Below are positions 6,923 to 57,073 of a stretch of 64,000 bases of DNA, one piece after another; position 1 is the first letter of the stretch, and each line of letters starts with the position of its first letter. The translations under genes were made by a program, and so were the position numbers. The DNA is from Mobula hypostoma (taxonomy: Eukaryota): contig NC_086097.1 of assembly GCF_963921235.1 (NCBI RefSeq), forward strand, positions 165,232,001 through 165,296,000, given 5' to 3'. Below the pieces are notes generated by a model. The model worked only from the letters and a program-made list of their open reading frames with translations, was not told the origin of the DNA and did no database searches.

Positions 6923-7698
6923 GTTTTAATACTGTATTTTTTACTTGTAAATACAAAACTGCTGACAAGGCTGAATTGCATAATGATCCTGTCACTGGAC
7001 TCCTCTTCCAGAGCTATGATCTATAGATTGAGAGATGTTTAAATCCCAGTAGCATCTGGGGAATTCAGATTCAAGTAAATAAATTGAAAAGAAATCTAAT
7101 TTAATGCTAGCATTGGTAGTAGTGACCATGAAATTGGTCTATTGTCATCAAAAACACATCTGCTTCAAATGACATCCTTCAAGCAGGAAACTTGCCATCC
7201 TAGTCTGTTGGAAACTCGAGATCCAGAGCAATATGATTTGACCCTTAAATTGTCCTGCACTTTATGAATGAGAGTTTGAAATAAGTTGAGTTTTAGCAGA
7301 GAACTGTACAACTAAACTTAAGTAATAATGTTTTGACAAATTTGATTTCCTGTTTCAGTAGGTTTGTTTGCCGCAAGAGATCTGACATTTTATATACTTT
7401 TGACTTTGTAAAATGATGAACCATATTGGTTTTAAATGTGAAAAATAGCAGAAGCAGGCTATTGGACGATTTAAGCTTGTTTCGTTCTATAAGATCATAG
7501 CTGGTTTGATCTTGACCTCTAATCCTCATTCCTACCATTTTCCCATGACCCTTGCACTTAAAGTTTCTTTTTTTTTAAGATCTATTTTAGTCTGAATGGT
7601 GGGGCCCTTGATGTTGGATATTGCTTTCTTGTGGCAGTGCTGCTTGTAGATGTGCTCATGTTGGGGAGAGCTATTTAGAGAAAGATGTCATCTTTAAT

Positions 7699-8121
7699 TG
7701 TCGTTGTCGTGGCTATCCCTCGAGGTCGAGGATGATGGTCTTCGTTCTGAAGAAGTGGCCCACAGAGCAAAGACACTTGTGCGTGTATTTGTTTAACGTG
7801 TACTTGTTGTTGCACTCCAAGAAGCACACGATACTTCACAAATCATCCAACTGATTCCAGTGGCATGGAATGCACGATGATTGGAGCTGATGGACTTGTT
7901 GCAGCCTTCATCCGCCTTCACAGCCGTTGAGTTCGACATAACTTCATCCGCCTGTTCCACCGTTGAGGTCTTGGTTGGATTGTTCTTCGTCAGGGACCTC
8001 ACCCTCGACCTTATCGCCATGGGTGACCCTACCAGGAGCATAGGTCCAGACGGCATCGCTCTCGGGATCACAGGACCATACAAGCTTCTCCACCGCGACA
8101 AGGTGACAATCCGTGGAGAAG
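7699..8121 (-). mobile_element. Short non-autonomous RTE-like retroelement (5'UTR joined to 3' end, no RT)
   Basis: 10-bp TSD catctttaat at 7689-98 and 8122-31. The minus-strand 5' end resembles RTE/Expander-type 5'UTRs as I recall them (gtcaccttgtcgcggtggag...ctcctggtagggtcacccatggc). The 3' end has a stem-loop and an (ACGACA)-like tail. Confidence 0.7.
8047..8121 (-). ncRNA. Putative HDV-like self-cleaving ribozyme
   Basis: P1 CUUCUCC/GGAGAAG; P3 ACC/GGU; L3 UUGUCGC; one G-C pair in P1.1; a P4 hairpin; J4/2 GCGAU; imperfect P2 CGGAUUGU/GCCGUCUG. P1 nucleotide 1 is the first base of the element. Confidence 0.55.
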
Positions 8122-9267
8122 CATCTTTAATATCATTATCAAAATGTTGCCTTTTGTTTTGCCATATTTTATATGATAAATTACAATCTGTTATGGTATT
8201 TTATTTGGTATCCAGGACTTAATAATAAATTTATTCTGCAGTTCATATCTTATTGTTCGTGTTAGTTTCACAGGCTCTTAGAAAATTACAAGAATGCTTG
8301 CAAGGGGTTCAAGAGGTTTTGTTGGAAGGGTTTCCATCCCTCCAGCCCCCACCGTTCACATTAAATCACATTTTATTTCATCATATGTGAATTGAAGTTT
8401 TGTAATTATTGCCATGAAGCAAAAGTTAGTGTGAATCACAAGAGTGTAAAATTCAATGTGCTGTGTGTTGCAAAACGTGTTTTTGTCCTGTTACTCGAGG
8501 TTCAGTTCAGCTACGTGTATGTATATATCTGGGTGATCATATTGTGAATTATAACATAACAGGGCCATTATCTTTTAAAGCAAAGATGACATTTAAAAAA
8601 CTTTTTTTCTCTGATGTGTTTGTTCTTCATGAGGAACAACATGAATAATTTTTAGAAAATATTTTATTGCATTTTACAGGGAAACGTGGTTTAGCTCTGT
8701 GTGAACAGTTTCCTGTTTTCTATGTCATTGTTTGCCATTGCTGCTTGTTCAGTCAGCTATGTCTGAGAAAAGATTTTGTGTAACACTGTAGCCTATTATG
8801 ATGCATTTGATATGGGGGCAGTTTTTCTGTTGCCCTGAAATTGCTGGCCACCTACCGTGTGCCTTGCTGTTTGGTGCAATGTTCTGCTGGGTGACCATCT
8901 GTCAGTACATTGGCATGAAGATATCTTTGCTTGGACAGCTTCCTGCACTTAGAATGACTTTGATAGCAGATGAGGAGCTGCTTCAAGATTCTCCGACTGC
9001 CAGAGCTGTTAATTTAATGAATGCTTGTCAATGTCTTTGCCTACATTCAAGTACACTATACAAAATAAACTTTTCAAAACAAATTTTAAAAGATAACAGA
9101 TTAGAGCTAAAGAAGCAATTTTCAAATTAGCAAGCCACCATCATTTGTGTCACAGGTTTCATTTGCTGTTTGAAGATATAGGCCATCCCCAGGTTACAAA
9201 TGCAGGATTTATGGACAGACAGACACACAAATGAGTCCTCTAATATTATTAAATTTAAAATACTTTT

Positions 9268-11235: not shown

Positions 11236-13010
11236 GATATAGAAACATAGAAAATAGGTGCAGGAGTAGGCCATTCGGCCCTTCGAGCCTGCACCGCCAT
11301 TCAGTATGATCATGGCTGATCATCCAACTCAGAACCGTGTACCAGCCTTCCCTCCATACCCCCTGATCTCTTTAGCCACAAGGGCCATATCTAACTCCCT
11401 CTTAAATATAGCCAATGAACTGGCCTTAACTGTTTCCTGTGGCAGAGAATTCCACAGATTCACCACTCTCTGTGTGAAGAAGTTTTTCCTCATCTCGGTC
11501 CTAAAAGGCTTCCCCTTTATCCTCAAACTGTGACCCCTCGTTCTGGACTTCCCCAGCATCGGGAACAATCTTCCTGCATCTAGCCTGTCCAATCCCTTTA
11601 GGATTTTATACGTTTCAATCAGATCCTCCCTCAATCTTCTAAATTCCAACGAGTATAAGCCTATTTGATCCAGTCTTTCATCATATGAAAGTCCTGCCAT
11701 CCCAGGAATCAATCTGGTTAACCTTCTTTGTACTCCCTATGTGGTAAGGATGTCTTTCCTCAGATTAGGAGACCAAAACTCCACACAGTACTCCAGGTGT
11801 GGTCTTACCAAGGCCTTGTACAACTGCAGTAGTACCTCCCTGCTCCTGTACTCGAATCCTCTTGCTATAAATGCCAGCATACCATTCGCCTTTTTCACCG
11901 CCTGCTGTACCTGCATTCCCACTTTCAATGACTGGTGTATAATGACACCCAGGTCTCGTTGCACCTCCCCTTTTCCTAATCGGCCACCATTCAGATAATA
12001 ATCTGTTTTCCTGTTTTTGCCACCAAAGTGGATAACTTCACATTTATCCACATTAAATTGCATCTGCCATGAATTTACCCACTCACCTAACCTATCCAAG
12101 TCACCCTGCATCCTCTTAGCATCCTCCTCACAGCTAACACTGCCGCCCAGCTTCGTGTCATCCGCAAACTTGGAGATGCTGCATTTAATTCCCTCATCCA
12201 AGTCATTAATATATATTGCAAACAATTGAGGTCCCAGCACTGAGCCTTGCGGTACCCCACTAGTCACTGCCTGCCATTCTAAAAAGGTCCTGTTTATTCC
12301 CACTCTTTGCTTCCTGTCTGCCAACCAATTCTCTATCCACATCAATACCTTACCCCCAGTACCGTGTGCTTTAAGTTTGCACACTAATCTCCTGTGTGGG
12401 ACCTTGTCAAAAGCCTTTTGAAAATCCAAATATACCACATCCACTGGTTCTCCCCTATCCACTCTACTAGTTACATCCTCAAAAAATTCTGTGAGATTCA
12501 TCAGACATGATTTTCCTTTCACAAATCCATGCTGACTTTGTCTGATGATTTCACCACTTTCCAAATGTGCTGTTATCACATCTTTGATAACTGACTCTAG
12601 CATTTTCCCCACCACCGATGTTAGGCTAACCGGTCTATAATTCCCTGGTTTCTCTCTCCCTCCTTTTTTAAAAAGCGGGGTTACATTAGCCACCCTCCAA
12701 TCCTCAGGAACTAGTCCAGAATTTAAAGAGTTTTGAAAAATTATCACTAATGCATCCACTATTTCTTGGGCTACTTCCTTAAGCACTCTGGGATGCAGAC
12801 CATCTGGCCCTGGGGATTTAACTGCCTTTAATCCCTTCAATTTACCTAACACCATTTTCCTACTAACATGTATTTCCCTTAGTTCCTCCATCTCACTGGA
12901 CCCTCTGTCCCCTACTATTTCTGGAAGATTATTTATGTCCTCCTTAGTGAAGACAGAACCAAAGTAATTATTCAATTGGTCTGCCATGTCCTTGCTCCCC
13001 ATAATCAATT
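11236..13010 (-). mobile_element. Young 5'-truncated CR1 LINE (RT domain, 3'UTR, tail)
   Basis: ORFs 11737-13008 and 11329-11712 are in the same frame, separated by a single TAG. Motifs [28 protein letters not shown]. (TTCTATGT)-type tail. Confidence 0.95.
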
Positions 13011-15949: not shown

Positions 15950-17463
15950 CAGTACTGTGCAAAAGTCTCGGGCACGTGTAAAAAAATTCTGTAAATCGAA
16001 AATGCTTTCAAAAGTAATGAAATGAAAAATTTCTAAATAAAATTCATTATAAAACACAGTAAAATTTTTAAAAATACTAAATCAAATTAATATTTGGTGT
16101 GACGACCCTTTGCCTTTAAAATTGCATCAATTCCCGTAGGTACACTGTCATACAGTTTTATAAGAAAAGTGGCTGCTAGGTTCCAAGCATCTTGGAGAAC
16201 TTGCCACAATTCTTCCGCAAACTAGCTGACTCGCTTGCTTCTGTTTCTCCAGTTAATCCCAGACAGCCTTGCTGTTGAGATCAGGGCCCCGTGGAAGCCA
16301 TCCCATCTGTGCAAAATTCCTTGTTCTTTTCGCTTAAGATAGTTCTTTATGACCTTGTCTGTGTGTTTTGAGTCATTGTCCTGCTGCAGAATGATTTCGG
16401 GACCATTCAGACATCTCCCTGGTGGCACTGCATGATGGATGATAATCTGCTTGTGCTTCTCAGCATTGAGGATTCCACTAATTCTGACCAGATCACCAAC
16501 TCCATTTTCAGAAATGCAGCCCCAAAGCTGCAGGAAACCTCTGCTTGCTTCACTGTCGGCCACAGACACTCATCCATGTAGTTCTCTCCAGCTCTTCTAT
16601 GGATAAACTGCCTCCTGTTTGAGCCAAAAATTTCAAATTTTGACTCGTCAGTCCAGAGCACTTGCTGCCATTGTTTGCCACTCCGGAGGAATGACTTTTT
16701 GGCAGCAACTACTTCTAACAAGACCTCTCCAGTGGTTTCTGAGAGTTCGGAGCTGATTGCAGTGCTGGAGTTTTTCCGATTTAGAAGGGACGTCAGTTTG
16801 ATGTATCTCTCGTCCGCTGCACTCAGTTTCCGTGGCCGACCAATGTGTTTCTGATCCTCAACCTTGCCCAGTTCTGTGCTTCCTCAGAAGAACTTGGACA
16901 GTACATCTTGAAACTCCTGCCACACAATTTCTGCTTGGGTGAGACTTTGCTGATGCAGGATGACCAACCTTGTGTCTTGTTCCTCTGCTCACTCTTGGCA
17001 TGGTGTAAGAATTGATGATTTGAAGATTAAACTGTCACATTTACAGCACCCTCACCTTTTAGTTTGGTTGTCCTTTGTCTAGTTTGATGCCTCCTACACC
17101 TGTTTCAGTTAATCAGTTTAGTTTATTCAACTCAATATGTCATTCATCCTAGTGTTTGTTATCTTTGGTTAATCACGGACCTACAAGAGTGTAGGTCTTA
17201 CCTATGTACCTATGTAGGTCTCACCTACCTATTTACCTACAAAGTAATTTTGTTTTTGTTTCTAAAGTAGTTTATTACTTAATGTTACTTTCTTTAACAA
17301 AATACGAAAATTTCTCTTACAGTTAATTTTTCGGAAAATGAATGTTTAGGAATCTAACATTTGCTCTTTTCTACTGACACTCTAATGCAGAAGACACAAA
17401 TAAACATATAAAACAAAACCTATATTAAAAATCTCAGGTACTTATGAGTTTTGAACAGAACTG
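15950..17463 (-). mobile_element. Tc1/mariner transposon, degenerate
   Basis: TA TSD. Imperfect TIRs cagtactgtgcaaaa / cagttctgttcaaaa. Transposase motifs VLWTDESKFEIFG, WGCISENGVG, QQDNDSKH. Confidence 0.92.
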
Positions 17464-39243: not shown

Positions 39244-39528
39244 ATTATATTTTGTTCTGTTTTATGTTCTGTGTGATATTTTGTGGGCGCTCTGCAGTCC
39301 AGAAGAATGTTTCATTTGGTTGCATACATATACAATAGTAAGATGACAATGAACTTGAACTAATACGGTTGTCACACAAATTCAGTGACCTAGGTTCAGT
39401 CCAGACTTTCATGTTGTCTATATGGAATACGTGTGTTCCCATGTGACTGTGTGGACTTCTTTGTGTGATCCAGTTGCTCCCACATCATAGAGATCTGCAA
39501 GTAGGTTAATTCAGTAAATTACCTTAAA

Positions 39529-40476
39529 TGCAGCATCTCCAAGTTTGCGGATGACACGAAGCTGGGTGGCAGTGTTAGCAGTGAGGAGGATGCTAAGAGG
39601 ATGCAGGGTGACTTGGATAGGTTGGGTGAGTGGGCAAACTCATGGCAGATGCAATTTAATGTGGATAAATGTGAAGTTATCCACTTTGGTGGCAAAAATA
39701 GGAAAACAGATTATTATCTGAATGGTGGCCGATTAGGAAAAGGGGAGGTGCAACGAGACCTGGGTGTCATTATACACCAGTCATTGAAAGTGGGCATGCA
39801 GGTACAGCAGGCGGTGAAAAAGGCGAACGGTATGCTGGCATTTATAGCGAGAGGATTCGAGTACAGGAGCAGGGAGGTACTACTGCAGTTGTACAAGGCC
39901 TTGGTGAGACCACACCTGGAGTATTGTGTGCAGTTTTGGTCCCCTAATCTGAGGAAAGACATCTTTGCCATAGAGGGAGTACAAAGAAGGTTCACCAGAT
40001 TGATTCCTGGGATGGCAGGTCTTTCATATGAAGAAAGACTGGATGAACTGGGCTTGTACTCGTTGGAATTTAGAAGATTGAGGGGGGATCTGATTGAAAC
40101 GTATAAGATCCTAAAGGGATTGGACAGGCTAGATGCAGGAAGATTGTTCCCGATGTTGGGGAGGTCTAGAACGAGGGGTCACAGTTTGAGGATAGAGGGG
40201 AAGCCTTTTAGGACCGAGGTTAGGAAAAACTTCTTCACACAGAGAGTGGTGAATCTGTGGAATTCTCTGCCACAGCAAACTGTTGAGGCCAGTTCATTAG
40301 CTATGTTTAAAAGGAAGTTAGATATGGCCCTTGTGGCTACAGGGGTCAGGGGGTATGGAGGGAAGGCTGGGTTCTGAGTTGGATGATCAGCCATGATCAT
40401 AATAAATGGCGGTGCAGGCTCGAAGGGCCGAATGGCCTACTCCTGCACCTATTTTCTATGTTTCTATGTTTCTATG
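39529..40476 (+). mobile_element. Young 5'-truncated CR1 LINE
   Basis: Open frame from KFADD to the stop (39601-40377, 258 aa). Tail tttctatgtttctatgtttctatg. Same subfamily as 11236-13010. Confidence 0.95.
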
Positions 40477-42494: not shown

Positions 42495-45400
42495 CATGGG
42501 TCCAATATCCTAGCACAGATTTAATAGAGTTGTTAGGGAGGGTTTAAACTAATTTGGCAGGAGGATCGGGCTTAGTGATAGGGCTGAGGAAGGGGGAAAC
42601 AAATAAATCAAAGATAGCGTGTAACAGAGATGATAGAAAGGACAGGCAGGAGGTTAGGCATAATCACAGCCAATGGGATGATTTACAGGGCAATGGAGGC
42701 ATGGTGTAGTTAAAACAGAAAGCAACAAATACTGGACTGAAAGTGTTATATTTGAATGCACGCAGCATAAGAAATAAAATGGACAATCTTCAAATTCAGC
42801 TACAGGTTGGCAAGTATGATGTTGTGGCCATCTCTGAAACTTGGCGAAAGGATGACTGCCATTGGGAGCTGAACATCCAAGGATATACAATGTATCAAAA
42901 AGATAGGTTAGTAGGCAGAGGGGGTGGTGAAATAATATTAAATCATTAAAAAGGGATGACATGGGATCGGAAGGTGTAGACTCTCAGGGTTGAGTTAAGA
43001 AATGGCAGGGGTAAAAGGGACCATAATGGCAGTTGTATACAGGCCTCTAAACAGCAGCCAGGATGTGGATTACAAATTACAACAGGAGATCGAAAAGGTG
43101 TGTAAGAAAGGCAATGTCATGACAAGCGTTGGGGATTTTAACATGAAAGTGAATTGGGAAAACCAGGTCAGCACTAGACCTCGAGAGAATTTGTAGATGG
43201 CTTTTTAGAACAGCTTGTTGAGCCCACTAGGAGGATCGGCTGTGCTGAATTGGGTATTGTGCAATGATCCAGAGGTGGCAGTAGAGCTTAAGGTTAAGGA
43301 ACCCTTGAGGAACAATGATCACAAAATTATTGAGTTCACTTTGAATTTTCAGAAGGAGGAACTAAATTCCAATGTGTCATTTCAGTGGAATAAAGGAAAT
43401 TACAATGGCGTGAGAGGGGAACTGACCAAGGTAGACTGGAAAGGGACACTAGCAAGATGGACAGCAGAGCAGCAAAGGCTGGAGTTTCTGCAAAAAATGA
43501 GGGAACTGCAAGACAGATATATTCCAAATAAGAAATTTTTGAATGGAAGAAGGATACTACCGTGGCTGTTAAGTGAAGTCAGAGCCAAAGTAAAAGCAAA
43601 AGAGAAGGCATGCAAGGAAGCCAAAGCTAGTGGGAAGATAGACAATTGGGAAGCTTTTAAAAACTTGCAGAAGGAAACTAAGGTGATCATTAGGAAGGAA
43701 AAGATGAATAATGAAAGGAAGCTGGTGACAAATATCAAAGAAGATACTAAAAGCTTTTTTTAAAGTATATAAAGGGTAAAAGAGAGTTGAGGGTAGATAT
43801 AGGACCAATAGGAAATGATGCTGGAGATATTGTATTGAGAGACGCAGAGAAGGCAGAGGAACTGAATGCGTATTTTGCATCAGTCTTCACAGTGGAAGAC
43901 ACCTGCAGTGTACTGGATATTCAAGAAAGTCAGGGAAGTGAAGTATGTGCAGTGAAAATTACAACTGAGAAGGTGCTCAGAAAGCTCAATGATCTGAGGG
44001 TGGATAAATCTCCTGGACCTGATGGAATGCACACTTGGGTTCCAAGGGAAGTAGCTGGAGAGATTGCGGAGGTATTAACAATGATCTTCCAAGAAATGAT
44101 AGATTCTGGCATTTTACAGGATGACTGGAAAATTGCAAATGTTACTCCACTATTTAAGAATGGTGGCAAGCAGCAGAAAGGAAACTATAGACCTGTTAAC
44201 CTGACATCAGTGTTAGAATCGATTGTTAGGGATGAGATTACAGAGAACCTGGAGGCACAGAACAAAGTAGGCCAAGGCCAGCATGGTTTCCTGAAAGGAA
44301 AATCCTACCTGACTAACCTCCTGCAATTTTTTGAGGAGATTACAAACAGGGTAGACAAAGGAGATGCAGTAGATGTGATGTACTTGGATTTTCAGAAGAC
44401 CTTTGACAAGGTGCCGCACATGAGATTGCTTAGCAAGATAAGAGCCCGTGGAATTACAGAGAAGTTACCAACACGGGTGGAGCATTGGCTGATCAGCAGT
44501 AAACAGAGATTGGGGATATCAGTGGAGTTCCACAAGAGTCGGTGTTGGGGCTGCCGCTTCTTATGATTTATCTCAATGATTTGGAATATGGGATTAATGG
44601 ACTTGTAGCTAAATTTGCCAATGATACAAAGATAGTTGGAGGAGCGGGTAGTGTTGAGGAAACGGGGAGCCTGCAGAGAGACTTAGATAGTTTAGGGGAA
44701 TGGGCAAAGAAGTGACAAATGAAATACAATGTTGGAAAGTGTATGGTCATGCACTTTGAAAGAAATAACTGGGCAAACTACTATTTAGATGGGGAGAGAA
44801 TTCAAAGTGCAGAGATGCAAAGGGACTTGGGAGTCCTTGTGCAAGATACTCTGAAGGTTAACCTCCAGGTTGAGTCGGTGGTGAAGACAAATGCACTGTT
44901 GGCATTCATTTCTAGAGGTATAGAATATAGGAGCAGGGATGTGATGTTGAGGCTCTATAAGGCACTTGTGAGACCACACTTGGAGCATTGTCTGCAGTTT
45001 TGGGCTCCTTATTTTAGAAAGGATATACTGACATTGGAGAGGGTTCAGAGAAGGTTCACAAGAATGATTCCAGGAATGAAGGGGTTACCATATGAAGAAC
45101 GTCTGGCAGCTCTCGGACTGTATTCCCCGGAGTTCAGGAGAATGAGGGGGGGATCTCATAGAAACATTCCAAATGTTAAAAGGCCTGAACGGATTAGATA
45201 CGGCAAAGTTATTTCCCATGGTAGGGGATTCTAGGACAAGAGCGCAGGACTTCAGGATTGAAGGACATCCATTTAGAACAGAGATGCGGAGAAATTGCTT
45301 TAGTCAGAGGGTGGTAAATCTGTGGCGTTTGTTGCCACAAGTGACTGTGGAGGCCAAGTCATTGGGTGTATTTAAGGCAGAGATAGGTTCTTGATTAGCC

Positions 45401-52977: not shown

Positions 52978-55900
52978 ACAAGACAAAGGAGCAGAAGTAG
53001 GCCATTCAGCCCATTGAGTCTGCTCCGCCACTCCACCATGAGCTAAACTATTCTTCCATCCAGTTCCAATTTCTGGCTTTTTCCCCATATCTCTTGATAC
53101 CCTGATTAATTAGATACCTATCAATCTCCTCCTTAAACACCCTCAATGATCGGGCCTCCACAGCTGTATGTGGCAATGAATTCCATAAATCCACAACCCT
53201 CTGGCTAAAAACATTTCTCTTCATCTCTGTTTTAAATGGGTACCCACTAATTCTAAGAATGTGGCCTCTTGTCCTGGACTCACCCATCAAGGGAAACAGC
53301 CTTTCCACATCTATTCCGTCCAACCCTTTTAACATTCGGAATGTTTCTATAAGATCCCCTCTCATTCTTCTATACTCGAATGAATACAGTCCAAGAGCCG
53401 ACAAACGCTCCTCATATGTTAGGCCCTGCATTCCAGGAATCATCCTCGTAAATCTTCTCTGAACTTTCTCCAACATCAGTACATCCCTTCTAAGATAGGG
53501 GGCCCAAAACTGCACACAGTATTCCAAATAAGGTCTCACCAGTGCCCCATAGAGCCTCATCAACACCTCCTTACTCTTGTACACTATTCCTTTTGAAATG
53601 AATGCCAACATAGCATTCGCTTTCCTTACTGCCGATCCAACCTGGTAGTTAACCTTTAGGGTATCCTGCATGAGGACCCCCAAGTCCCTTTGCACTTCCG
53701 ATTTTTGAATTTTCTCCCCATCTAAATAATAATCTGTCCGATTATTTATTCTTCCAAAATGTACAACGGTACATTTCTCAACATTGTATCTCATCTGCCA
53801 TTTCTTTGCCCACTCTCCTAAACTGACCAAATCTCTCTGCAACCTTTCCGTTTCTTCAACACTTCCTGCTCCTCCACCTATCTTGGTGTCATCTGCAAAC
53901 TTAGCCACAAAACCATGTAATCCAGAATCTAAAATCATCGATATACATTGTAAAAAGAAGCGGTCCCAACACCGACCCCTGCGGAACACCGCTGGTAACG
54001 GGCAACCATTAGAATAGGATCCCTTTATTCCCACCCTTTGCTTTCTGCCTATCAACCAATGCTCCACCCATTCCAATATCTTTCCTGTAATTCAATGGGC
54101 TGTCATCTTACTAAGCAGCCTCTTATGCGGCACCTTATTGAAGGTCTTTTGAAAATCTAAATACGCAATATCTACAGTCTCTTCCCTTGTCAATCTTACT
54201 CGAGATTACCTCAAAAAATTCCAATAGGTTGGTGAGGCAGGATCTTCCCTTCATGAAACCATGTTGGCTTGGGCCTATCTTGTCATGCACCTCAAGGTAT
54301 TTTTCATAACGTCGTCCTTGAGGATCGATTCCAATATCTTTCCCACTACCGATGTCAGACTAATAGGCCTGTAATTTTCTTTTTGCTGCCTCCCTCCTTT
54401 CTTAAGCATCGGAACTACATTTGCGACCTTCCAGTCCTCTGGAATCAAGCCAGAGTCTATTGATTCCTGGAAGATCATTTCCAATCCCTCCACAATCTCC
54501 AAAGCCGCCTCCTTCAGAACCCGTCGGTGCACCTCATCCGGTCCGGGAGACTTATCTATTCTTAGTCCATTTAGCTTCCCAAGCACTTTCTCTCTAGTAA
54601 CCTTGACTGTACCTAATTCTATTCCCTGAGACCTCTGGCTATCAAGTATGTTGCTAATGTCTTCCACTGTGAAGACTGATGCAAAATACTCATTTAGTTC
54701 CTCTGCCATCTCTTTGTTACCCATTATAATTTCTCCAGCATCATTTTCAATCGGTCCTATATCCACCCATGTCACTCTTTTACTCTTCATATATTTAAGA
54801 AAACTCTTAATATCCTTCTTTTATGTTAATTGTCAACTTACTTTCATAATTCATCTTTTCTTTCCTAATGACTTTCTTAGTTTCCTTCTAAGTTTTTAAA
54901 AGTCTTCCAGGTCCTCATTTTTCCCACTAATTTTTGCTTCCTTGTACACAGTCTCTTTTGCTTTTATTTTAGCCTTAACCCCTCTTGTTCGGCACACTTG
55001 TGCCATTTTTCCATTCATGATTTTCTTGTTTCTTGGAATATATTTTTCCTGCACTTTTCTTATTTCTGCTAGGAATTTCATCCAATCCTGCTCTATCGTC
55101 CCTCCATCTAGCTTACTTTCCAATTGACTTCAGCCAGTTCCTCTCTCAAACCACTGTAATTTCCTTTGTTCCACTGAAATATCGATAAACCTGATACCAG
55201 CTTCTCCTTTTCAAATTTAAAACTGAACTCAATCATATTATGATCACTACTTCCAAGGGGTTCCATTACCTCCAGCTCCTTAATTGCCTCAGGTTCATTA
55301 CACAGCACCCAATGCAAAACAGCCGATCCCCTGGTGGGCTTATGGACAAGCTGCTCCAGAAAGCCATCCCGTAGGCATTCTACAAACTCCCTCTCCTGAG
55401 ATCCAGTACCTTCCTGACTTTCCCAATCCACTTTCATATTAAAATCCCCAATAATTACCTTGACATTTTCTTTCTGACACGCTTTTTCTATTTCCAGCTG
55501 TAACTTGTCCACATCCCGGCTGCTGTGTGGAGGCTTGTATATAACTGCTATTAGTGTCTTTTTACCCTTGCCATTTTTTAACTCGACCCATAAGGATTCT
55601 ACCTCTTCTGATCCTATGTCCCTTCTTTCTAGTGATTTGATATCATTGCTTACCATCAGGGCCACGCCACCCCCTTTACCTACCTTCCTATCTTTCCTAT
55701 ACACTGTGTATCCTTGGATATTCAGCTCCCAATCACATCCATGATTTAGCCATGACTCGGTGATGGCCACAATGTCATATCTTTTAACCTGTAGCTGTAC
55801 AACAAGGTCATCCACTTTATTTCTAACTGTGTGCATTTAAGTACAGTACACGTGGATCAGTATCTGTTACCGATTTTGCTATGTTTCCATCGCACAGCAA

Positions 55901-57073
55901 AATATTCTGTCTATTCACCTGCCTGTCCTTCTTGCCATTTTTGCTGCACAGTATCTTTGACTTATTTCTATTTTCCTCTTCCTTGACCCTAACACCCTGG
56001 TTTCCTTCCCCCTGCCAACTTAGTTTAAACCCTCCCTAACAGCTATATTAAACAATCCCACCAGGATATTAGTACCCTTTGAGTTCAGGAGTAACCCATC
56101 GTTTTTGTATAACTCGTACCCTCCCCCAAAATAGATCCCAATGATCCAAGAATTTGAAGCCCTACCCCCTGCACCAGTTACTTAGCCACACATTCATCTG
56201 CTTAATTCTGCTATTCATACCTTCATTAACGCGTAGCTCAGGCAGCAATCCTGAGATTATTACTCTGGAGGTCCAGCTTTTCAATTTTCTTCCTAGCTCC
56301 CAGTAATCTTCCTTCGGGACCTCCTCTCTTTTTCTGTCTATGTCATTGGTACTAACATGTACCAAGACTTCTGGCTGCTCGCCCTCTCTCCTCCGAAAAC
56401 TCTGGATCCTATCTGAGATATCCCGTACCCTGGCACCAGGGAGGCAACACACCATCCGGGTATCCTTGTCCAGCTCGCAGAATCTCTTGTTTGTTCCCCT
56501 CACTATGGAATCCCCTATAACTACTGTATTTCTCCTTGCTCTCTTGATCACGGCACTGGGCAGAGTGCCAGAGTCCCGTTCACTGTGGTCTTCCTCTGTC
56601 AGGTCAACCTCTCCAACAGTATCTAAAACGATATATCTGTTTCTGAGGGAAAATGTCACAGAGGTGCTGTGCACTCTCTCTCTATAGGTATTATCAATCA
56701 CCTCCTCACTTTCCCTAACCAGCTGAAGGTCATCAAGTTGCAGCTCCAGATCCCTAACACGGTCCTTAAGGAGCCTCATCTCAATGCACCTGATGCAGAT
56801 GTAATCCTTGTGGAGGCTGGGAGTCTCCCAAGGTCCCCACATCTGACACTCCAAGCACAACACTAATCCTAGATGCATACCTCTAATGCTACTGTTATTA
56901 CTAAATAAATAAACCTGTAACTTATCCCTTTACTATGAGACTCAACAGTCGCAGGAAGCCTCTTCCCGTTTCTGCCTAAGCCCGTTGAGCCAAAGCCCTA
57001 TCACTCTGCAGCCTCTCACTCCACTGCCCGCAGGATACGGTGGTGTTCTTTTTAAGCCTTCCGTGCTCTGAAA
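52978..57073 (-). mobile_element. Full-length CR1 LINE (5'UTR, ORF1, ORF2, 3'UTR) nested in the BEL/Pao element
   Basis: ORF1 56162-56878 has a zinc finger, leucine zipper and SGNH esterase motifs (VVIGDSIVRG, CLPGARVRD, VHVSTND). ORF2 fragments at 55108-55836, 54275-54790, 53048-54076. Possible 6-bp TSD aatttc at 52972-77 and 57074-79. Confidence 0.93.

Follow-up and report, generated by a model that had tools for sequence, protein, structure and literature searches.

A two-ended RTE-type element in Mobula hypostoma with a predicted HDV-like ribozyme at its 5′ end

The element, its partner LINE and its copies

The window (the whole 64,000-nucleotide stretch of DNA analysed here) carries on its minus strand a 423-bp element bounded by TSDs, as the original prediction had it: positions 7699–8121 are flanked by exact 10-bp repeats at 7689–7698 and 8122–8131. 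The nucleotides of the element are numbered from position 8121 (nt 1), and its main parts are the following.

7699..8121, minus strand: whole bipartite non-autonomous RTE-type element, 423 nt
8122..8131, minus strand: TSD, upstream copy, whose last base (G-1) is able to pair with C38
7689..7698, minus strand: TSD, downstream copy
7748..8121, minus strand: nt 1–374, the 5′ end of an autonomous-type partner (84–93% identity to partner copies)
7699..7749, minus strand: nt 373–423, the partner's last ~50 nt with the (GAC)n tail; the two parts overlap by 2 nt where they join

The element shows no similarity to RT, in agreement with the claim that it is non-coding. A 107-codon stop-free frame crosses the 5′ UTR (window 7799–8119, minus strand) and is also open in the partner copy L250; it has no Pfam match above the cut-off. 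No exact A or B box of a Pol III promoter is present, again as originally stated; one-mismatch A and B boxes at nt 163 and nt 210 would imply a start near nt 145, not nt 1, and a tRNA search on the element found none. A search of phage records with the element gave no match. Elsewhere in the window, a fragment of another very abundant repeat lies beside the insertion (7581–7661), a transposase-like frame occupies 16407–16883, and many long frames, at 11737–13008, 39505–40377, 43209–45234 and 53048–56929, read like CR1-type LINE fragments.

The original prediction had called for a search for an autonomous RTE sharing both ends with the element, and such a partner, 3.87 kb long, is present at full length in the same genome. 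Contigs from two public runs, which depart from the element at position 7749 into sequence resembling the end of a zinc-finger frame, lead to it. The full-length copy L250:1125–4991 has an 11-bp TSD and the same first base as the element. A motif that precedes the shared tail in the partner has 1,402 matches in the genome (control 0), and all 30 fetched partner 3′ loci run on, partly or wholly, into the element's last ~50 nt (nt 373–423). The shared 5′ part extends to nt 374 in 28 of 30 partner loci and to nt 370 in the other two. Because the 5′ part matches partner nt 1–374 and the 3′ part matches the partner's end, the element corresponds to the two ends of the partner with a 2-nt overlap; in terms of sequence, it is an RTE-type LINE that has lost its interior and codes for no protein. 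It has no ORF product and no tRNA, 5S or 7SL head, and both parts match one same LINE, with L250 carrying both ends, as in bipartite LINEs. A Pol III SINE would carry at its 5′ end a head derived from a small RNA and containing A and B boxes; the head here is simply the 5′ UTR of the partner, and the earlier picture of a SINE-like element with an independent ribozyme head is not supported.

The RTE label of the partner is drawn not from a tree but from its APE-RT-C2H2 single-ORF layout, its length, its 5′ UTR motif and its TSD length, the range in RTE elements being that given in the available text of PMC6007223, and these fit an RTE-type element. Its best relatives are single APE-RT proteins of ~1,060 aa. 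Four partner loci were extended, including L250, the frames of which are broken and have RT and C2H2 matches; none of the four long partner copies retrieved showed an intact ORF (a listing of ORFs covered one of them). In two other copies, L275 and L279, the 3′ tail follows only ~1 kb past the 5′ UTR, which marks them as other internal deletions of the same LINE. Two other routes to the partner, through DUF6451 and through the RT of another RTE, yielded other RTE families instead. The locus L121:2757–5813 (minus strand), with a 1,018-aa open frame containing endonuclease, RT and DUF6451 and with a (GAA)n tail, also belongs to an RTE family other than the partner, and neither the descriptor nor the covariance model found a ribozyme at its 5′ end. 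In the accessible part of the supplement of Kojima 2018 (PMC5786205), one 5′ UTR motif of the family has 45 matches and three of the four family sequence motifs have none.

The internal-junction motif of the short family has 1,558 matches in the genome with up to 2 mismatches (control motif 0), and 3,036 first-look candidates for the element came from a search of the whole 3.48-Gb genome. Mean identity of 74 full-length copies to their majority sequence is 96.6%; the focal copy differs from the family majority at 21 positions, and 39 other scored copies are 93–95% identical to it. TSDs of 8–15 nt (mode 10–11) were found in 50 of the 74 copies, the other 24 giving none; the TSD abuts nt 1 in 27 of the 50, overlaps it by 1–3 nt in 9 and falls 1–5 nt short in 14. 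The short family has amplified as a unit, with TSDs and a microsatellite tail. Thirty short-family loci, the focal copy among them, were picked by the 3′ part of the element: 13 begin exactly at nt 1, 17 in all begin within 5 nt of it, and the remaining 13 are 5′-truncated. Of 30 partner loci, 22, picked by sequence downstream of the shared part, also start at nt 1. Copies with 5′ ends scattered or extending past P1 would have spoken against the ribozyme, and what we observe is a pile-up at nt 1 in both the short family and the partner with no copy extending upstream. The 84 distinct upstream flanks have at most 5 nt in common.

The predicted ribozyme and its relatives

The proposed HDV-like core can be read in the element as originally described, with P1 paired 7/7 in Watson–Crick fashion, P3, a 7-nt L3 and a single G23–C38 pair as P1.1, and with P1 nt 1 directly adjoining the TSD. 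The predicted location of the remaining parts differs from the earlier one.

8115..8121, minus strand: P1 5′ strand, nt 1–7; predicted cleavage 5′ of nt 1
8106..8112, minus strand: P2 5′ strand, nt 10–16
8092..8104, minus strand: P3 (nt 18–20 with 28–30) and L3 (nt 21–27; G23 in P1.1)
8084..8091, minus strand: P1 3′ strand (nt 31–37) and C38 of the one-pair P1.1
7990..8083, minus strand: predicted branched P4 domain, nt 39–132 (45–50/123–128, 53–56/112–115, 69–73/104–108, hairpins 75–87 and 93–101)
8047..8058, minus strand: C64 and P2 3′ strand of the original prediction; conserved, with nt 69–73 covarying with nt 104–108 instead
7985..7989, minus strand: J4/2 strand C-G-A-A-G with predicted catalytic C133 (plus-strand g7989)
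7977..7983, minus strand: P2 3′ strand, nt 139–145, 7/7 Watson–Crick with nt 10–16

We compared the homologous 5′ ends of six families, namely the focal family, B, C and H from the same genome and E and F from metagenome contigs, the last two represented by 2 and 1 sequences. The covariation that had been asked of the fold is found in P1, where 41 of 42 pairs are kept (reached by 2 of 720 permutations), and in P1.1, which is G-C in three families and A-U in three; it is absent from the proposed GU-rich P2 (nt 68–75), with 32 pairs compared to a permutation mean of 31.5 and 336 of 720 permutations reaching the value. The 5′ ends show further marks of HDV-like ribozymes: a P1 of 6–7 bp that would begin at the RNA 5′ end, P3, the conserved U, C and G of L3, and P1.1. 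The catalytic-core positions U21, C25, G26, C133 and A135 are kept in all six families together with a P1 beginning at nt 1, with some variation at other places (U-U at the base of P3 in family B, a 9-nt L3 in most copies drawn of family C). Cleavage in this class maps to P1 nt 1, according to the available text of PMC4908430. An HDV descriptor, composed after the element was seen, had one match in the 64-kb window (the element), 2 in 3.84 Mb of shuffled window and none in 2000 shuffles of the element. At gathering scores the window has no Rfam match, and near the element there is none at E ≤ 10 save one chance match; the delta-ribozyme model accordingly does not match, such a library match not being a defining property of the fold.

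The best partner site for nt 10–16 in the focal family is nt 139–145. This distal P2, initially noticed through complementarity within the focal family, forms 41 of 42 pairs across the six families, 39 of them Watson–Crick (2 of 720 permutations reach this), and lies behind a conserved GA-C-N-A-A. In an unedited MAFFT alignment of 10 sequences, in which B, E and F are misregistered by one column in places, 5 of its 7 pairs show double changes, and none of 500 shuffles reaches its values on four of five measures, compared to 146–237 of 500 for the short P2 register. For the full model of 41 pairs, 87.7% of cells are paired and double changes occur in 21 pairs, which none of 500 shuffles reaches; when the model is slid along the alignment as a control, 35–53% of cells are paired. 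The fifth measure, further pair types, does not rise above shuffles for either the full model (97/500) or the distal P2 (486/500). The helix 69–73/104–108 shows double changes in four of its five pairs and was predicted without prompting by RNAalifold, together with P1 and two further helices within P4; P3 and P2 were absent from the RNAalifold prediction, in which L3 takes part in different pairs. When single sequences of the P4 domain are folded, they do no better than shuffles (z from −1.58 to +0.97).

These results relocate several parts of the original model. Its P2 register, gapped or ungapped, shows no covariation and only background-level duplex energies; its short hairpin does not make up the whole P4, the predicted P4 being branched and ~95 nt long by the RNAalifold helices and covariation; and the supported candidate for the catalytic base is C133 (g7989), ~70 nt further on than C64 (g8058). 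A P2 of at least 5 bp behind a J4/2 with C and A, as expected of an HDV-like ribozyme, is provided by nt 10–16/139–145 with C133 and not by the short register. C133 is kept in 111 of 112 focal-family copies and in 12/18, 28/30, 8/8, 2/2 and 1/1 copies of the other five families; these counts cover only copies matching both anchors, which allowed 2–6 mismatches, and so are inflated. C64 is nearly as conserved across families, which lies outside what the long-P4 model explains. With nt 139–145 and the C133 strand included, the predicted HDV-like ribozyme comprises the first ~146 nt of the element, and a construct from 8150 to 8040, as had been proposed, would omit the predicted catalytic strand. 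The sizes of P1, P2 and P4 are within the ranges of R2 ribozymes reported in the accessible part of PMC3774820.

The core of the focal copy is intact. G-1, A8 and C9 can lengthen its P1 to 10 bp (−17.3 compared to −9.8 kcal/mol for P1 and P3), and two changes weaken its P4 (−8.2 compared to −18.4 in copy L004), all these being nested energies only. The focal copy is predicted to misfold and is probably a poor cutter, because the 10-bp P1 would form at the expense of P1.1 and P3; a G-1 effect of this sort is discussed for L1Tc in the available text of PMC3185411. The whole core is kept in 64 of 95 aligned copies (of 104, 9 with indels being set aside), so better test copies than the focal one exist.

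The long-P4 form seems to be common to several RTE families and to escape detection by Rfam. Family C (L121:1060–1483, minus strand, and L191–L219) is a second short, two-ended RTE family of ~420 nt with 4,856 first-look candidates; its predicted long ribozyme is the same apart from the sequences of P1 and P2, and its two ends resemble the RTE copy L165. The 9-nt L3 of most copies drawn results from a 2-nt insertion, yet these copies still start at P1 nt 1. Family B (L127:1050–4280, L168–L187; 22 matches) is an ORF-bearing RTE with the same ribozyme and an A-U P1.1, and the older relatives H/D (L365–L384, L399, L189; 65–80% identity between copies) have the same head with an extra P4-hairpin repeat. 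The covariance model finds the long-P4 form clearly in 3 of 80 metagenome loci and weakly in one more, many of these contigs possibly lacking the 5′ end. Among the regions upstream of 53 metagenomic RTE relatives, the short-P4 descriptor matches 3, compared to 2 of 53 reverse strands, and is therefore uninformative there. Two contigs have shorter folds. L364:258–342 (minus strand), from a viral collection, has the same P1/P3/L3/P1.1 core with a C1-G pair and a P2 that can close ~15 nt past P1, so that its HDV-like fold is minimal and lacks the long P4; in the metagenome contig L334:355–464 (plus strand), an HDV-like fold of the conventional kind, with a short P4, precedes an RTE-type ORF by 784 nt.

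Origin of the 5′ ends and of the deletion

We consider it likely that the element arose from an RTE-type LINE by internal deletion and was probably spread by the protein of that LINE, with a predicted HDV-like ribozyme in its first ~146 nt that would cut before nt 1. The original proposal of a non-coding retroelement mobilised by an RTE, its 5′ end being nt 1 of an HDV-like P1, is to that extent supported. Both halves derive from the partner, the copies have TSDs and a (GAC)n tail and stop at nt 1, and compensatory pairing is seen in P1, P1.1, the distal P2 and P4. A transcript would enter from upstream or start at a promoter within the UTR, the first ~146 nt would fold, and the RNA would be cut before C1 in a Mg2+-dependent reaction with C133 as the catalytic base. 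The partner protein would bind the 3′ tail and the RNA would be copied into a staggered nick by target-primed reverse transcription, the nick giving rise to the TSDs and the copy ending exactly at nt 1 or being 5′-truncated. Trans-mobilisation, transcription and cleavage are proposed here by analogy with R2 SIDEs (PMC3414825) and NARTc (PMC3185411), as described in the accessible parts of those papers.

The cut before nt 1 could in principle be made by the short ribozyme of the original prediction (nt 1–75, with C64 and the GU-rich P2), or by a transient co-transcriptional form of it acting before nt 104–145 are made. The short ribozyme fits a strict descriptor and forms 7 of 8 P2 pairs in the focal family, 9–10 of 10 aligned rows share C64 and the GAGAGC motif, and the focal short-P2 duplex (−5.7 kcal/mol) is among the best 4% of the local background. 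In typical copies, however, this duplex is at background level, only 4–5 of the 8 pairs form in families B, C and E, and the P2 that lacks covariation includes nt 69–73, which covary with nt 104–108; we regard the short form as very unlikely. The 5′ end could instead be set by a Pol II promoter within the element that initiates at nt 1, with the fold serving as a protective or protein-binding structure or with a ribozyme redundant in vivo. Such a promoter would also explain the 5′ pile-up; L1Tc Pr77 is a promoter and a ribozyme with the same +1 (PMC3185411), and Pol II transcription of bipartite LINEs is expected by Kojima 2018 (PMC5786205), in both cases according to the available text. It does not account for the retention, by six families, of all five core positions and of a P1 that begins at nt 1.

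The 5′ junctions bear on the same question. About one third of existing SVA insertions have a 5′ G attributed to the cap, a sign of capped templates in L1 and SVA (PMC3287187, available text), compared to a lone extra G in one of the 50 TSD-bearing copies here. By analogy with L1 and SVA, and assuming that RTE proteins copy the cap, this rarity would mildly favour an uncapped template; it argues against the Pol II promoter, which we consider unlikely. It is also conceivable that the fold is a relic, inherited from an active autonomous ancestor and dispensable to the short family: short copies simply inherit the 5′ UTR of the partner, no within-family covariation is visible at 96.6% identity, and the entire core is retained by only 64 of the 95 aligned copies. 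On the other hand, the core of the family majority is intact, short copies begin at nt 1 as the partner does, and the fold is also kept in family C, the other short family, and in the old family H, which makes a mere relic highly improbable.

The position of the deletion coincides with a possible pairing between the two ends, formed by the following segments.

7762..7774, minus strand: nt 348–360, 5′ arm of a predicted end-joining helix
7738..7749, minus strand: nt 373–384, 3′ arm, starting at the deletion junction
7723..7731, minus strand: nt 391–399, complementary 9/9 to nt 111–119 (8003–8011) in the P4 3′ strand and also within the tail's own hairpin

In the partner, nt 348–360 can pair with the 13 nt that start at the deletion junction, with 12 Watson–Crick pairs (5 of 300 shuffles are as good, compared to 289 of 300 for a deleted-region control), suggestive of a 13-bp helix linking the two ends at the deletion point; nt 111–119 of the partner are likewise complementary to its tail. 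Family B gives no signal of end pairing (249 of 300 shuffles), and four family-C copies, with the pairing at another place, give mixed results (111, 195, 7 and 10 of 300), so that end pairing is only a lead; when duplexes of the tail with the 5′ end were tested over long windows, the signal was weak, with 16 of 367 windows equally good. It is tempting to speculate that RTE RNAs loop through pairing of the 3′ tail with the 5′ UTR, that such looping is required for retrotransposition and guides the deletions, and that the ~146-nt branched-P4 ribozyme is an undescribed form common to vertebrate and invertebrate RTEs, a combination that we hold to be doubtful. If true, looping would explain why RTEs, unlike most LINEs, give rise to two-ended ribozyme-headed parasites.

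Comparison with known systems

HDV-like ribozymes of RTE, baggins, R2 and R4 elements were reportedly described in Webb 2009 and Ruminski 2011. Their presence at the 5′ ends of these elements and a proposed release from read-through transcripts are mentioned in the accessible parts of PMC6765202, PMC5786205 and PMC7761336, the last of which also mentions twister ribozymes in RTEs; compared through such citing papers only, they have a 5′-terminal HDV-like fold as predicted here. Two-ended non-autonomous RTEs are common, and Kojima 2018 (PMC5786205, available text), citing Ruminski 2011, ties the retained extreme 5′ end to a self-cleaving ribozyme. Like the present element, the Bov-A, RTESINE1/2, MAR4_MD and RTE-N2_Lch described there consist of RTE 5′ and 3′ ends joined by internal deletion, with no small-RNA head; the element belongs to a different family, with 374 + 50 nt, and a ribozyme structure is absent from the available text of that paper.

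The R2 SIDEs and R2/R1 SIDEs of Drosophila also combine an HDV-like ribozyme with a LINE 3′ end in a non-autonomous element, and their self-cleavage has been shown; R2 SIDEs are specific to a 28S rDNA site, low in copy number and have a large J1/2, whereas our element is dispersed in at least 1,500 copies with a 2-nt J1/2 and a long P4 (PMC3414825, accessible part). In NARTc and L1Tc (Pr77), too, the ribozyme is common to a non-autonomous element and its partner, is cut at C1, and has a single-pair P1.1 that can be disrupted by G-1; it is a minimal ribozyme of 77 nt, compared to the ~146 nt predicted here, belongs to the ingi/L1Tc clade of trypanosomes and is also a promoter (PMC3185411, accessible part). 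Neither this family nor the long-P4 form was found in the literature covered, although Ruminski 2011, Webb 2009, Repbase and Dfam, being outside that scope, may hold them; the failure to find a shark or ray example is weak evidence, most subscription papers and Repbase being outside the scope, and the available portion of a 2026 ribozyme-discovery preprint has no RTE or shark passage.

The ribozyme-headed two-ended arrangement is thus already published for derivatives of RTE, R2 and L1Tc, and what is added here is a further family of a known class and a structural correction of its predicted ribozyme. The correction makes the prediction testable with a construct of nt 1–150, a C133U mutant and better copies than the focal one. 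RTE UTRs serve in gene-writing templates (PMC13708176, available text), and for this reason their 5′ fold, and any pairing between the ends, has practical interest. With its partner and deletion point mapped, the element provides a vertebrate case for the suggestion, made in the accessible text of Kojima 2018 (PMC5786205), that the 5′ ends of bipartite elements are kept by their ribozymes.
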